Sequence record: OR167180
From: Escherichia phage MIZ4
Direction: 5' to 3' (one strand)
Length of the DNA stretch: 64,000 bases
Shown one piece after another: positions 1-8,089 of the stretch. The position numbers were made by a program, and so were the translations under genes. How positions within the stretch are numbered: the stretch's first letter is position 1; the number at the start of each line of letters is the position of its first letter. The notes under the pieces are model-generated. The model was not told the origin of the DNA and ran no database searches. It saw only the letters and a program-made list of their open reading frames with translations.

Positions 1-44
1 ATTAAGCAGGTTATTCGATCACTGTCACCAGTGAAAGCCCCATA

Positions 45-1283
45 TCAGTTTAGGGAAGTAAGGTCAAAGCTCATCATCCAACGGTAAGCATTCGGCACAG
101 GTTCTTTTACGAATGCGCCAGGATAAGTCTGCTTAGGCTGTATCTTGTTCTCCGGTACTACTTTACCCTCAGCTTTCAGAGATCCGAAGATAATAGCATC
201 CCATACTTTCATCGGGTTATAAACATGGTTAAATTTAATCTTTGCATAGAAACATAGGCTATACACCAGATCGATAAATCCACGCTTTTTATCAATCGCC
301 AGCACACGGTCAACGTCGCCGATGTTATAATCTATGTAAAGTTGATGGTTATCATCACGCAATTTCTTTAACGGACCATCATAATCAACCTTACCGATTC
401 CTGTCTCATATTCAGCAACATAATCTAACGCATATGTTGGTTGAGTCGTAAAGCTAAATTTCTTGTACAGGTCAATATAATCAAGGCTTTCGATCCCCAT
501 GATCGTAAATGCTTCACGCTCGTTGCCAAAATCATCCTGTGAGATTCGGGATTTAATCTTACCGCACGGGCTTAGACGGTTAGCGGTTCTACTTCCGAAC
601 TTATTACTGATACGTTTAATGATATATGGAATATCGAATGTTTCTGTGTTCCAGCCAGTGAAACCAACGGGTCGGTTTTCCTCAAAGAATCGGATGTATT
701 CTAACAGCAATTCATCTTCTGTGTCATAGACGTTATAAACAACGCGCTCTACAATATCAGGTCGAAGAATAGACTTGCTTGCTTCCCAGATTTCACCGCT
801 TTTTCCTTTCAAATCAAATACAAAGAAACGATCATGTACGGAATCATAATGCGTAATTGCATCGATAGGATATTTCGCTTCTTCTGGTTTAGGAAATTCC
901 GGTGCAGTGACCTCGATATCAACCCATGCTACACGGATTTTATTTCGGTCATATCGAATCTCGCCTTTATATGTATCGGACAGATAGGAGATGATAAAAT
1001 CATCCATCCCTAGTGCCTCCTGCCCCATTTCTCCCATCTTTTTACGCCATTTGTTGGCCTCGTTCATAGATGGGAATTTTTTAGCAATGCAAGGCTTGCC
1101 ATAGATATCTTTATAATTCGTAACCATACCAGGCGCGGCATGATGAAATAAAGTTGGCGTATATTCAACGTAACGCTCTTGTTCTTGTCCAGCATCATCA
1201 ATATAACGCTCGTAGATCTTATCACCCACTCGCTCACATGACAGAAAATACATAATATAAACTCCTTCACTTACGAAAGACAC
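45..1283 (-). CDS. 43: DNA polymerase (family B, T4 gp43-like), N-terminal exonuclease-domain fragment; frame ends at an in-frame TGA inside motif A
   Basis: Translation aligns by eye to the T4 gp43 N-terminus (KDIYGK, FPSM, LGMDDF, DAITHYD, LDYIDLYKKFSF, IDYNIGDV, MSFDLTSL); stop at 45-47 where T4 continues YPSII. Confidence 0.85.
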   Translation of the reverse strand: MSFVSEGVYIMYFLSCERVGDKIYERYIDDAGQEQERYVEYTPTLFHHAAPGMVTNYKDIYGKPCIAKKFPSMNEANKWRKKMGEMGQEALGMDDFIISYLSDTYKGEIRYDRNKIRVAWVDIEVTAPEFPKPEEAKYPIDAITHYDSVHDRFFVFDLKGKSGEIWEASKSILRPDIVERVVYNVYDTEDELLLEYIRFFEENRPVGFTGWNTETFDIPYIIKRISNKFGSRTANRLSPCGKIKSRISQDDFGNEREAFTIMGIESLDYIDLYKKFSFTTQPTYALDYVAEYETGIGKVDYDGPLKKLRDDNHQLYIDYNIGDVDRVLAIDKKRGFIDLVYSLCFYAKIKFNHVYNPMKVWDAIIFGSLKAEGKVVPENKIQPKQTYPGAFVKEPVPNAYRWMMSFDLTSLN

Positions 1284-2278: not shown

Positions 2279-3252
2279 TATACGAACTCCAATTCAACCA
2301 TTAATTGCATTAACAAAAAGACAATGTGAATCTCTTTATCAGCCGCGTGCGCAAACATCTGATTATTTTCACCGATAATCTCAGTGAGACGAATAATAGA
2401 AGCTGGCTTAACTTGAGTATACAACTCATTATAAAGTTTCTTGACAAATTGAGCGTATGTATTGGTATATCGCGGTGCAAGTTTACGTACATTAGCAAAC
2501 TGTTTAGTTTTAAGTGCTTCCACCACATCGGTTACTTCGGTATTGCTACTTTCGATAACCATGCTCAATACGCCAGCATCAATTTTACCATGTTTAGCGT
2601 AGCGGTCCAAAAGTTTCATTACGCGTCGGAAGTCTGGGAAGTTCTGCTTAACCAGTTCCGCTAATACGCGCATTTCTTCTACTGGCACACCTTCTTTATC
2701 AAGAATTGCTTTACACCGGACGATCATTTCTTTCATCATGCGAAGCTGATCATCTTTAGTCGGAGATCCAAACGTGATGGGATCAAATCGAGATCGTAAC
2801 GCTGGGATAATACCTTCTAGATCGTTTGCTGTGATAATGAATGTCACATTGTTTGAGTATGCCTCAGAGAAACTACGCAAGTGTCTTTGAGCGTCAGCTA
2901 GCCCCGCTCGGTCATACTCATCGATAATAACAACTTTGCCTTTTTCTCGTTTTTCTTCATCGAGTGATACACTCTGCGCAAAGCGTGTAATCTCATCGCG
3001 GATAAAATCAATCTTACAATCTGCGCCGTTAACAAACAGATAATCAACACCCACATCTTCGCAAAGTGCCTTAGCAACGGTTGTTTTACCAGTACCCGGC
3101 GATGGGCTATGCAGGATCATAGAAGGGATTCGGCCTTGCTTAACAATCTGCGCGAAGATCTTTTTATCTGCTTCCGGCAGAATACATTCAGAAATTGATT
3201 TCGGACGGTATTTCTGTTCCCACTGAAACTCATTTTCATTAACACTCAGCAT
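2278..3252 (-). CDS. 44: clamp-loader ATPase gp44 (AAA+)
   Basis: EQKYRPK, Walker A SPSPGTGKTT, VIIDEYDR; start taken at MLSVNENEF by comparison with T4. Confidence 0.85.
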   Translation of the reverse strand: MLSVNENEFQWEQKYRPKSISECILPEADKKIFAQIVKQGRIPSMILHSPSPGTGKTTVAKALCEDVGVDYLFVNGADCKIDFIRDEITRFAQSVSLDEEKREKGKVVIIDEYDRAGLADAQRHLRSFSEAYSNNVTFIITANDLEGIIPALRSRFDPITFGSPTKDDQLRMMKEMIVRCKAILDKEGVPVEEMRVLAELVKQNFPDFRRVMKLLDRYAKHGKIDAGVLSMVIESSNTEVTDVVEALKTKQFANVRKLAPRYTNTYAQFVKKLYNELYTQVKPASIIRLTEIIGENNQMFAHAADKEIHIVFLLMQLMVELEFV

Positions 3253-3317
3253 ATAATCACCTCTCACAAATTACATCATTAAAACGGGGAGTATTTACAC
3301 TCCCCACAAACATTATA

Positions 3318-4004
3318 TTAGTCGGTGTAGCTGGAGTCAAGGTCACACGCGATCATATAAGATACGGTTTCACTTGCCAGCCATACAGCCTTACGGCGAG
3401 TGAAGCTCAGTTTGTAATCGCCGAAGTCAGTAGCAACCAGTTTCATGTTATCTTTACGAATAAAGAAATGGAAGTCTGCGGTTCCGGTATATTCGCCCAT
3501 ATCAAGACAAAACATCTCATTAGGATTATTTTTGTCAATCTCTTCCCAACCTTTGATCATCAGACGACCATCAATCGGAAGAAATTCAAGGCGGTCCACT
3601 TTAAGCTGATTGCTCATTTTCATAAGCTGTTTCAGATCGTCGTTGCTCAGTTCGTAATCTACATCGCTTGCAGGTGGAGTAACTCGGCCTTTCGGTGATA
3701 CGATAGCGGCAGCACTAGCACCAGGATAATTAATTTTCAGACGATCATTAGACACACGAATGTTTCCGGTGCGGTCATCAACCGTAATATCTGCTTCATC
3801 GCCCACCAGATTCAGAATACCCAAGAAAGAGTTAAGATCATAGATCCCAATTTCGTGTTCCAGTTCTTGATTCAGAGTCGCTTCACCATATACAACGTTT
3901 GTCATGTTTTTGGTGATCAGGACGTTTCCTTTTTTCAGGATGATACCTGGGTTAATAGCGGAAAAGTTTTTCAGGGTAGCAATGGTTTCTTTAGTCAGTT
4001 TCAT
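3318..4004 (-). CDS. 45: sliding clamp gp45
   Basis: 228 aa; MKLTKETIATLKNFSAINPGI versus T4 MKLSKDTTALLKNFATINSGI; IYDLNSFLGILNLV. Confidence 0.85.
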   Translation of the reverse strand: MKLTKETIATLKNFSAINPGIILKKGNVLITKNMTNVVYGEATLNQELEHEIGIYDLNSFLGILNLVGDEADITVDDRTGNIRVSNDRLKINYPGASAAAIVSPKGRVTPPASDVDYELSNDDLKQLMKMSNQLKVDRLEFLPIDGRLMIKGWEEIDKNNPNEMFCLDMGEYTGTADFHFFIRKDNMKLVATDFGDYKLSFTRRKAVWLASETVSYMIACDLDSSYTD

Positions 4005-6968: not shown

Positions 6969-7561
6969 TTTAGTTTATGTTCCTCTAAAAATTCTTCAAT
7001 TTCACCTTGCAGGTCTTCCGCTTGTTGTTCCAGAATATCGCGAAATTCACCTACAGTCAAGCGGTAATCACACTTCACTAGTCGATGCGGGAGAATATAC
7101 CCTTTATACATTGTCTCTGACGCTTCCAGGAATACCCCACTATGCATGACAGAGATCCAACCTGTTAGCGTCAATGGAGTATTCGGAAAATAATACTTGC
7201 TGGATTGTTTCCACTGGACGAAAGCACCATATACAATCGGATTATATTCACCAACCACACTCTTAATAATGGATTCTACTTTGTCTTTTACAAAGTCGCC
7301 AATGCCCATAGTCACCATCAACTCTTGTGGGTGAATCACTTTAAGGTAACGACGGTAGCCGTCATCATACCACAGCTTAACCACTGGCTGACCCCACATT
7401 TTAGCAATACGCGCTTTCAGATAACCATAGATCGGATTCTTGTAATATGATTGTTTTAGTGTGTATGCGTGCACCAATTCAATAAAATATTCCATTGCTA
7501 TCGAATCAGGATCAGCCGCGACCATAGTCGTATTCATAATATGTTCCTCGTTCAATTTCAT
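6965..7561 (-). CDS. hypothetical protein
   Basis: 198-aa ORF, overlapping start/stop with neighbours. Confidence 0.4.
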   Translation of the reverse strand: MKLNEEHIMNTTMVAADPDSIAMEYFIELVHAYTLKQSYYKNPIYGYLKARIAKMWGQPVVKLWYDDGYRRYLKVIHPQELMVTMGIGDFVKDKVESIIKSVVGEYNPIVYGAFVQWKQSSKYYFPNTPLTLTGWISVMHSGVFLEASETMYKGYILPHRLVKCDYRLTVGEFRDILEQQAEDLQGEIEEFLEEHKLK

Positions 7562-7829
7562 ATTGTTTCAGGTCTTCTAAAAGTTCATCCACTGCTTGTT
7601 TCAGTGTATGACGCAGCGTAAAGTAATAGCTTTCATCAAATTCTATTTCCGCGCGAGGAATAGAGCGAATCTTACACTTAACAGTAGTATCGGTGAGTCG
7701 CTTTTCGACCATCATCCGAACTTCTTCATGCTCTTTGGAATACCATACATCAACGGAGATTCCCTTACGGCGAGCGAACATAGGCAACGCTGCATTAAAT
7801 TCCATTACTTTTTGTGCAAGTGTTTTCAT
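7512..7829 (-). CDS. hypothetical protein
   Basis: 105-aa ORF. Confidence 0.35.
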   Translation of the reverse strand: MKTLAQKVMEFNAALPMFARRKGISVDVWYSKEHEEVRMMVEKRLTDTTVKCKIRSIPRAEIEFDESYYFTLRHTLKQAVDELLEDLKQYEIERGTYYEYDYGRG

Positions 7830-8089
7830 CGTACAGACTCCATAGATCCACGGGCAATTACATTCTGGGTAATATCAGCAATCTTACGGGATACGATATT
7901 TGTTAGCCCCTCTTTGGTGATATTTTCACGATCAAATGGGATTTCGTCATGAGTCCATAAACCATAGTTAGACCGAAATGATAGCATATACTGACCATCT
8001 CGCACAACCTCAAATACATGGATCTTAGTGAATTTCGATAAACCTTCGTTGATTTCTTTCAGTGCATTAGTAATCATAACAACCTCCAA
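7826..8089 (-). CDS. hypothetical protein
   Basis: 87-aa ORF immediately downstream of promoter cassette 8103-8131. Confidence 0.35.
   Translation of the reverse strand: MEVVMITNALKEINEGLSKFTKIHVFEVVRDGQYMLSFRSNYGLWTHDEIPFDRENITKEGLTNIVSRKIADITQNVIARGSMESVR

Follow-up and report, generated by a model that had tools for sequence, protein, structure and literature searches.

A Putative Mobile Group I Intron with a Probable HNH Endonuclease Gene Interrupts the Motif A Region of DNA Polymerase Gene 43 in Escherichia Phage MIZ5

Results

Gene 43 of Escherichia phage MIZ5, which encodes a PolB-type DNA polymerase, is very probably interrupted by a mobile group I intron of the T4-like IA2 type that carries its own HNH endonuclease gene and self-splices to give a normal polymerase. 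The boundaries of the insert, the open reading frame restored by its removal, the covarying RNA fold, the homology of the endonuclease, and the distribution of the element were all observed and are described below. The apparent truncation of an essential gene is explained in this way by a well-understood phenomenon. The gene 43 intron as such is already known and ordinary, and the additions made here are increments to a known element of textbook kind.

Gene 43 Continues beyond the Window Edge after an Insert of 1114 nt

The window (the whole stretch of 64,000 nucleotides that was analyzed) was 100% identical over its first 2500 bases to Escherichia phage MIZ5 (OR167181.1; Krischvirus, RB49-like, Straboviridae). 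This record runs past the window edge, and window position 1 corresponds to record position 96001. The gene order on the minus strand is that of a T4-type replication cluster (gene 43, regA, 62, 44, 45, rpbA, and 46). Gene 43 is itself located on the minus strand, with the annotated ATG at window position 1253 (the ORF listing gives a GTG at 1283). Because of this orientation, the gene loses its downstream part at position 1, whereas the initial annotation had assumed the upstream part to be outside the window. The same annotation considered the interruption impossible to resolve, but because the window is identical to OR167181.1 and this record continues past the edge, the question could be settled.

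Translation of the minus strand confirmed the earlier reading of the polymerase frame. The frame reads ...AYRWMMSFDLTSLN, reaches motif A as ...MSFDLTSL, and is followed by N and then by a TGA at window positions 45-47. As had been stated, the last 44 nt do not encode the expected continuation YPSII in any frame, and the other two frames were full of stops. The alignment of intron-less relatives broke off ~60 nt from the window edge, and Phi1, MIZ6, and RB49 each harbor one uninterrupted gene 43 of 2679 nt. Exon 1 (window positions 52-1253, minus strand) begins with the ATG (1253) and closes with the first two bases, CT (53-52), of the Leu codon in motif A. Its last bases are ...GAC CTT ACT TCC CT, ending at position 52, and a BLAST comparison with the uninterrupted gene 43 of Phi1 gave 98.7% identity over bases 1-1191 of the latter. 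In the MIZ5 record, exon 2 (positions 93461-94937) begins 1114 nt beyond the end of exon 1 with G TAT CCA TCA ATC ATC CGT CAG, encoding YPSIIRQ. A reading frame near YPSI(I/V)RQ, which had been anticipated beyond the edge, is thus present.

The sequence between the two exons, the intron (record positions 94938-96051), begins with AAACTGATATGGGG and ends with ...GAACATAATG. The insert comprises 1114 nt in MIZ5 and 464 nt in JSE. Its boundaries were established against Phi1, JSE, and MIZ6 and are backed by matches to RF00028 and by covariation; its first 51 nt occupy window positions 1-51 (minus strand). The insertion site is located within the motif A Leu codon, between its second and third bases (DLTSL/YPSII, with the slash marking the insertion point here and below), so that "L-N-stop" is read from intron nucleotides 1-7. 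As judged from the sequence and the mapped boundaries, the in-frame TGA (45-47, minus strand) represents intron nucleotides 5-7 and is no gene terminator. The initial annotation had therefore followed the frame correctly but not the limit of the exon, which ends at window position 52: the intron begins with the third base of the Leu codon and includes the N codon and the TGA as well. In silico removal of the intron resulted in an 892-codon ORF reading FDLTSLYPSIIRQ, ...FDLTSLYPSIIRQVNISPET..., which was identical to uninterrupted Phi1 gp43 at 889 of 893 positions (stop included). The ligated-exon junction expected from the joined exons is ...GACCUUACUUCCCU followed by GUAUCCAUCAAUC....

A false stop might also arise from a sequencing or assembly error, a reservation already attached to the initial annotation, or from a pseudogene. 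The stop is found at the very edge of the window, and the window taken by itself could not dismiss an error. However, the identical junction and insert were present, at 98-100% identity, in ~11 phages that come from several countries and were isolated and sequenced independently, and the carriers are viable phage isolates although the polymerase is essential. We regard an explanation of this kind as exceedingly improbable. An intein or another protein-level element in motif A has a still smaller, practically negligible probability. Archaeal PolB genes do carry inteins in the same conserved region, but here the stop occurs two codons into the insert and is followed by more in-frame stops, and the endonuclease ORF lies in a different frame context and is equipped with a start codon, Shine-Dalgarno sequence, and promoter of its own. 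The earlier conclusion that the stop rules out an intein was upheld.

The options put forward in the initial annotation were a split gene, a group I intron, and an inserted mobile element. If gene 43 were truly split into 43A and 43B, two polypeptides would be translated separately and assembled without any splicing, as in Aeromonas phages 44RR and 25. Split gp43 enzymes of this kind exist and are active, and GenBank lists two separate "DNA polymerase" CDSs in MIZ5 as well as in JSE. The MIZ5 record contains a 402-aa "DNA polymerase," a 274-aa "HNH endonuclease," and a 468-aa "DNA polymerase" in a row; in JSE the two polymerase pieces are 527 nt apart with nothing annotated in between. However, exon 2 does not contain an in-frame start: translation from the ATG at the end of the intron would proceed in another frame and terminate after 9 codons. 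The C-terminal CDS of the annotation begins only at an internal Met, so that 23 residues (YPSIIRQ and 16 more) would be missing from it. Moreover, the known natural splits of gp43 affect the variable fingertip of the fingers domain, whereas the interruption described here falls inside catalytic motif A. Finally, a simple intercistronic spacer has no need of a covarying ribozyme fold or of canonical splice-site nucleotides, both of which were found. A 43A/43B split is accordingly very unlikely, and of the earlier proposals it is the group I intron with a homing endonuclease gene that was substantiated. With gene 43 interrupted by such an intron, the GenBank annotation is wrong: one "DNA polymerase" CDS has been given a spurious two-codon tail (stop included), and the other has been deprived of 23 real codons.

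The Insert Has the Structure of a Group I Ribozyme

The nucleotides at both splice sites are canonical, because the last base of exon 1 is a U and the last base of the intron is a G (omega-G). The junctions between intron and exon 2 read ...CAUAAUG/GUAUCC in MIZ5 and JSE, ...AAAUUG/GUACCC in POP12, and ...CAAGCG/AUAUCC in LIMEstone1. RF00028 matched the MIZ5 insert with 32.8 bits (E 4e-6) and the JSE insert with 42.9 bits (E 1.3e-9; model positions 1-253, P1 through P9), both values being below the gathering score of 50. The shortfall is ascribed to very large inserts in the P6/P6a loop and between P7 and P3' (P7.1/P7.2). A scan of the window at the Rfam gathering threshold gave no match, which has no bearing on the intron, because the window holds only 51 nt of it. 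The first RF00028 alignment on MIZ5 placed P1-P3 within the endonuclease ORF; this was wrong, as the stretch in question is absent from JSE. The correct 5' half was taken from the RF00028 alignment of JSE together with the comparative alignment. The group I structure that had been suspected in the intervening sequence was thus detected, both by these matches and by the covariation reported below.

The 5' strand of P1 is formed by CCCU, the last four exon bases (window positions 52-55, minus strand), with the splice-site U at 52. It pairs, with a U.G pair included, with the internal guide sequence GGGG (window positions 38-41, minus strand), which constitutes the 3' strand of P1 and corresponds to intron nucleotides 11-14. 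This assignment follows P1 in the RF00028 alignment of JSE, and the guide sequence is invariant in the homologues. The exon ends with TCCCT in all four intron-bearing lineages and with AGTCT in the intron-less Krischvirus alleles. The latter encode the same Ser-Leu as AGT CTG and are unable to form P1. Because P1 (CCCU/GGGG) never varies, no covariation signal can be obtained from it. The sequence GAUAU (42-46, minus strand) is proposed, by eye and unscored, as the P10 partner of GUAUC in exon 2 (5 bp). In POP12, P10 would consist of GUAU paired with GUAC, suggesting that the guide base shifts with the wobble base of the Tyr codon.

Two further helices reach into the window. P2 is a hairpin, CACUG-GUGA-CAGUG (20-33, minus strand), in which 3 of the 5 pairs change on both sides among the homologues. 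The 5' strand of P3, CCUGCU (5-10, minus strand), has its partner GGCAGG ~1000 nt further on, outside the window, and 3 of its 6 pairs are compensatory. P2 reads CACUG/CAGUG in MIZ5, GGUUG/CAACC in Ackermannviridae, and CGUAGA/UCUACG in the Vibrio phage. P3 reads CCUGCU/GGCAGG in MIZ5, CUCUCU/GGAGAG in LIMEstone1, and CUUACU/AGUAAG in POP12. Variants of P7.2 among the lineages are GAAUC/GAUUC, GGGGC/GCCUC, and CACCC/GGGUG. P6a is built from a different helix in each lineage (GCAUUUUGAGC/GCUUAAAGAUGC in MIZ5, GUCAACUAC/GUAGGUGAC in LIMEstone1, and GUCGGCCAC/GUGGGCGAC in PC3). The core sequences of J6/7-P7 and P7', GUUCAACGACUA and GAUAUAGUCU, were invariant in the alignment of homologues.

Covariation was evaluated on an alignment of eight cores from which the P6a loop had been excised; ZQ1 and Vibrio phage 1.255.O were left out. 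The helices counted were P2, P3, P4, P5, P7 (the pseudoknot), P7.2, P8, and P9. P1, P6a, P7.1, and P9.x were judged by eye and kept outside the formal count, because in the MAFFT alignment P1 was displaced by one column and both P6a and the P2 of POP12 were garbled. The 44 pairs of P2-P9 were paired in 97.7% of cases, and 14 of them changed on both sides (in three or four independent lineages). When the 3' partners were slid by 1-3 columns, only 1-3 double changes were seen, and none of 500 shuffles reached the observed values. Because P7.1/P7.2 are situated between P7 and P3', an arrangement that we take, from the T4 td, nrdB, and nrdD introns, to be that of subgroup IA2, the intron was placed in IA2.

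Could it instead be that a free-standing homing endonuclease gene, comparable to mobE in nrdA of Aeh1, has inserted into gene 43 and that the intron-like flanks are a dead relic with no working ribozyme? The nuclease domain of the endonuclease does resemble free-standing mob-type endonucleases, and both Rfam scores fall short of the gathering score. On the other hand, JSE and PC3, which no longer possess the endonuclease, still keep the ribozyme core at ~99% identity, compensatory substitutions between lineages point to continued selection on the RNA fold, and the exon codons are adapted to pairing with the guide sequence. A dead relic is therefore highly improbable.

A Probable HNH Endonuclease Is Encoded in the P6a Loop

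The homing endonuclease ORF whose presence in the intervening sequence had been anticipated is indeed there and is probably of the HNH type. This ORF of 274 aa (record positions 95078-95902) is accommodated within the P6a loop, and its last ~14 codons (...DAVVQRLSKG) cross the 3' strand of P6a, J6/7, and P7. The peptide end VQRLSK is kept even in I-LimII, presumably as a consequence of RNA constraint. The ORF was 57% identical to the intron ORF of POP12 and, over the full length, 35% identical to I-LimII.

Matches were obtained with PHROG 12434 ("HNH endonuclease," E 6e-131) and PHROG 655 ("homing endonuclease," E 2.5e-19). The motif EVHHICPK...WNLVRL...DHVEAH (HH...N...H) is visible in the N-terminal ~110 residues. 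The same part of the protein resembles free-standing mob-type endonucleases of T4 (encoded between nrdD and nrdG), T2, and Acj9. Sequence searches of Pfam, NCBIfam, and PDB with the endonuclease gave no match, and among the PDB sequences there was no detectable similarity to any solved structure. The HNH assignment thus rests on the PHROGs, the annotated homologues, and the visible motif, and these point to a probable mob-like HNH homing endonuclease.

A T4-type late-promoter box, TATAAATA, is present upstream of the ORF. It is located inside a hairpin (-19.3 kcal/mol, z = -4.3) that pairs the Shine-Dalgarno sequence GGAGG with upstream sequence. By eye, an equivalent promoter and hairpin made of other sequences were recognized in POP12 and LIMEstone1, and the box of LIMEstone1 is annotated as a putative late promoter. 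A design of this kind is known for I-TevI and mobE (PMC2988022): early read-through RNA keeps the ribosome-binding site closed, which allows the ribozyme to fold, and late RNA begins within the hairpin and is translatable. Because the late promoter of MIZ5 likewise falls within the hairpin that buries the Shine-Dalgarno sequence, the endonuclease would be translated only from late transcripts starting inside the hairpin. By analogy with I-TevI and mobE, its expression in MIZ5 may thus be restricted to the late phase.

The Intron Occupies the Same Codon in Other Phages and Carries Marks of Mobility

Among the 58 Krischvirus records that cover the region, 13 contain the intron. They represent 11 distinct phages (ECD7, MIZ5, Cognac, G5211, ELT4, G2494, JEP8, kvi, PTE-Eco09, JK32, and JSE), and their introns are 98-100% identical. 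The 274-aa ORF is intact in MIZ5 and ~9 other Krischvirus phages. In JSE, ~650 nt of the ORF were lost between two AAGAAT repeats, and the late-promoter box has changed from TATAAATA to TATAGATA. Inserts at the same codon were also found in Pectobacterium phage POP12 (Straboviridae; 65% identity over 92% of the intron) and in many Ackermannviridae, including Dickeya phage LIMEstone1 (with I-LimII as the ORF), XF4, Salmonella phages KE30 and allotria, and Escherichia phages ZQ1 and PC3. Vibrio phage 1.255.O has a same-codon insert as well, the ORF of which is broken into two pieces. PC3, PH4, and A221 contain a parallel endonuclease-less derivative within the Ackermannviridae (465 nt versus 1183 nt). 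Such a mix of intact, decayed, and empty sites is what a homing cycle would predict.

The exon sequences around the junction were compared between MIZ5 and its sibling MIZ6, Phi1, and RB49, with JSE serving as second intron-bearing allele. Ten substitutions, all of them synonymous, were found at positions -10, -8, -5, -4, -3, -2, +10, +13, +16, and +19. They are common to all intron-less alleles and absent from intron-bearing JSE, against a background of ~1 SNP per 70-100 nt. Across the site, gene 43 reads GACTTGACAAGTCTGTATCCATCTATTATTCGA in intron-less MIZ6 and Phi1 and GACCTTACTTCCCTGTATCCATCAATCATCCGT in the spliced exons of MIZ5. This block of ten SNPs around the junction suggests that the intron travels with ~30 nt of its own exon flank, and the AGU to UCC part of the block is what P1 needs. 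An exon block of ~30 nt is consistent with co-conversion during homing, and it would probably alter the target of the endonuclease too. With MIZ5 carrying the intron and its close sibling MIZ6 lacking it, homing and co-conversion could readily be measured in a phage outside the T-even group.

Proposed Pathway of Splicing and Homing

From the evidence presented above, we infer splicing in vivo, the activity and target of the endonuclease, its late-only expression, and homing, and we propose the following sequence of events. Transcription of gene 43 would run through the intron, the RNA of which would fold as a P1-P10 ribozyme and self-splice after the final U of the exon and after the terminal G of the intron. 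The spliced mRNA would encode the normal 892-aa polymerase, and the in-frame TGA would be mere intron sequence. In a mixed infection, the endonuclease would cut or nick the intron-less gene 43 near the motif A site, and repair from the intron-bearing copy would insert the intron along with ~30 nt of flanking exon.

More tentatively, MIZ5 may harbor one version of an old and still mobile unit of intron and endonuclease that is specialized on a single PolB motif A codon, has crossed phage families, and perhaps serves as a competition weapon; we consider this possible rather than probable. If it were true, the unit would be shared by Straboviridae (Krischvirus and POP12) and Ackermannviridae (phages of Dickeya, Salmonella, Escherichia, and Vibrio), in which it would now be seen at intact, endonuclease-deleted, and absent stages. 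The Krischvirus intron might then act by cutting the essential polymerase gene of co-infecting intron-less relatives. Such a role in competition with a co-infecting phage has been reported for the intron endonuclease of PhiPA3 (PMC11620839).

Discussion

The introns of T4 td (I-TevI) and of T-even nrdB and nrdD (sunY) resemble that of MIZ5 in several respects. They are of the IA2 type, with the endonuclease ORF looped out from P6a, and they interrupt conserved active-site motifs in host genes of nucleotide or DNA metabolism. In both, endonuclease expression is also coupled to a late promoter and to a hairpin in which the ribosome-binding site is sequestered, the T4 side of this comparison being established knowledge (PMC2988022). 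They differ from the MIZ5 intron in that the host gene of the latter encodes a polymerase and its endonuclease is mob-like HNH, whereas I-TevI is a GIY-YIG enzyme. Furthermore, splicing and homing of the T4 introns have been proven experimentally, whereas those of the MIZ5 intron are predicted.

Aeromonas phage 25, which is related to T4, also carries a group I intron in gene 43 (25.g43B; PMC2993671). Unlike that of MIZ5, this intron is found in the 43B cistron and does not contain an endonuclease gene of its own, and it is thought to be reliant on a free-standing seg-like one. The polymerase of phage 25 is truly split at the fingertip; in MIZ5 there is one intron with its own endonuclease gene and no split of the protein. 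Group I introns with HNH endonucleases in phage DNA polymerase genes are a further parallel and are known from SPO1, SP82, and Bastille (I-HmuI, I-HmuII, and I-BasI) and from cyanophage Pf-WMP3 (I-PfoP3I). The host polymerases of SPO1, SP82, Bastille, and Pf-WMP3 belong to family A and not to PolB.

A literature search for Krischvirus in combination with intron returned no paper. Likewise, searches returned no RT-PCR, in vitro splicing, or cleavage data for the MIZ5 intron or its homologues, and no paper giving the Krischvirus form with intact endonuclease, a secondary structure, or the insertion site shared across two families. The closest known element is that of JSE. Petrov et al. 2010 (Virol J 7:292, PMC2993671) independently classed the JSE insert as a putative group I intron whose endonuclease gene is truncated; their mention is limited to a single sentence and includes neither a structure nor an experiment. 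Element and insertion site are the same in both phages, and the matching parts of the JSE intron are 99.4% identical to MIZ5. The JSE intron differs from that of MIZ5 by the deletion of ~650 nt of the endonuclease ORF and by the mutated late-promoter box. One of the modest additions made here is that MIZ5 and ~9 other Krischvirus phages carry the intact-endonuclease ancestor of this JSE "relic" intron. The occurrence of one intron-endonuclease unit at the identical motif A codon in two phage families is another.

In Dickeya phage LIMEstone1, I-LimII was reported as a putative intron endonuclease in the polymerase gene by Adriaenssens et al. 2012 (PMC3296691). The intron of LIMEstone1 occupies the same CT/N site of the DLxSL/YP Leu codon as that of MIZ5, the two homologous cores share ~76% identity in the conserved blocks, and the same P6a loop encodes an orthologous endonuclease with 35% full-length identity. 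In LIMEstone1 and the other Ackermannviridae, a phage family different from that of MIZ5, compensatory changes have replaced the sequences of P2, P3, P6a, P7.2, and P9, and both P7.1 and P9.x are longer. I-LimII is listed as a GIY-YIG enzyme in a table of PMC3296691; the RefSeq record and the sequence indicate HNH.

Annotation of Gene 43 and Exon Flanks of the Intron

Gene 43, which encodes the PolB-type DNA polymerase, was represented by two separate "DNA polymerase" CDSs in the GenBank annotation of MIZ5 and also of its intron-bearing Krischvirus relatives JSE and ECD7; the group I intron itself was not annotated in any of these three phages. In MIZ5, the two annotated pieces were located at window positions 45-1253 (minus strand) and, outside the window, at OR167181.1 93461-94867. 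The N-terminal CDS ended with a spurious ...N-stop that was read from the intron, and the C-terminal CDS was started at an internal Met, leaving out 23 real codons (YPSIIRQVNISPETIAGSFDAAP). The exon sequences around the splice junction were distinguished by ten linked synonymous substitutions between -10 and +19 (window 33-62, minus strand, plus the initial 19 nt of exon 2 beyond the window edge), which perfectly separated Krischvirus alleles with the intron from those without it. The exon strand of helix P1 was created by four of the ten (AGU to UCC). Over the whole 64-kb window (1-64000), neither tRNA genes nor Rfam families at the gathering threshold were detected.

Homologous Introns in Other Polymerase Genes

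In the JSE intron (locus L003, about 7450-7913), a deletion bounded by two AAGAAT repeats had removed ~650 nt from the endonuclease ORF, and the late-promoter box was mutated from TATAAATA to TATAGATA. The ribozyme core was still ~99% identical to that of MIZ5. The 1183-nt LIMEstone-type intron of Ackermannviridae has, in parallel and independently, given rise to a form that lacks the endonuclease: the 465-nt intron of Escherichia phage PC3 (L006, about 3000-3465), also found in PH4 and A221. A second interruption was observed further downstream in Ackermannviridae polymerase genes (L004 4588-5430 in LIMEstone1; L007 3088-4104 in KE30), with another endonuclease gene (I-LimIII) inside it on the opposite strand. 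Because of this interruption, PolB of Ackermannviridae is annotated in three pieces.

In Vibrio phage 1.255.O, the motif A codon that is interrupted in MIZ5 likewise held an intron (L016 2450-3329). The endonuclease of this intron was broken up into two ORFs, probably as a result of frameshift or decay, and its P2 helix was yet another compensatory variant (CGUAGA/UCUACG).

Table 1 of the LIMEstone1 paper (PMC3296691) gives I-LimII, the endonuclease of the homologous LIMEstone1 intron, as GIY-YIG. According to RefSeq record NC_019925.1 it is an HNH endonuclease, and its sequence could be aligned with the MIZ5 protein at the HH...N...H motif.

Further Matches to the Intron Core in Other Phages

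Core blocks of the MIZ5 intron were matched at 78% identity in Acinetobacter phage YMC13/03/R2096 by an unannotated stretch that directly precedes the CDS for the terminase large subunit (L008 3001-3332). The terminase gene may thus harbour a group I intron that has escaped annotation. The 3' core of the intron (P7'-P9.x) was also matched over ~170 nt, at 74% identity, in the Vequintavirinae member Escherichia phage A7_1 (L009 3001-3171). The matching stretch immediately preceded a DNA primase/helicase CDS, and an opposite-strand "hypothetical protein" call overlapped it. Comparable matches to the 3' core were seen in phiKZ-like Pseudomonas phages.
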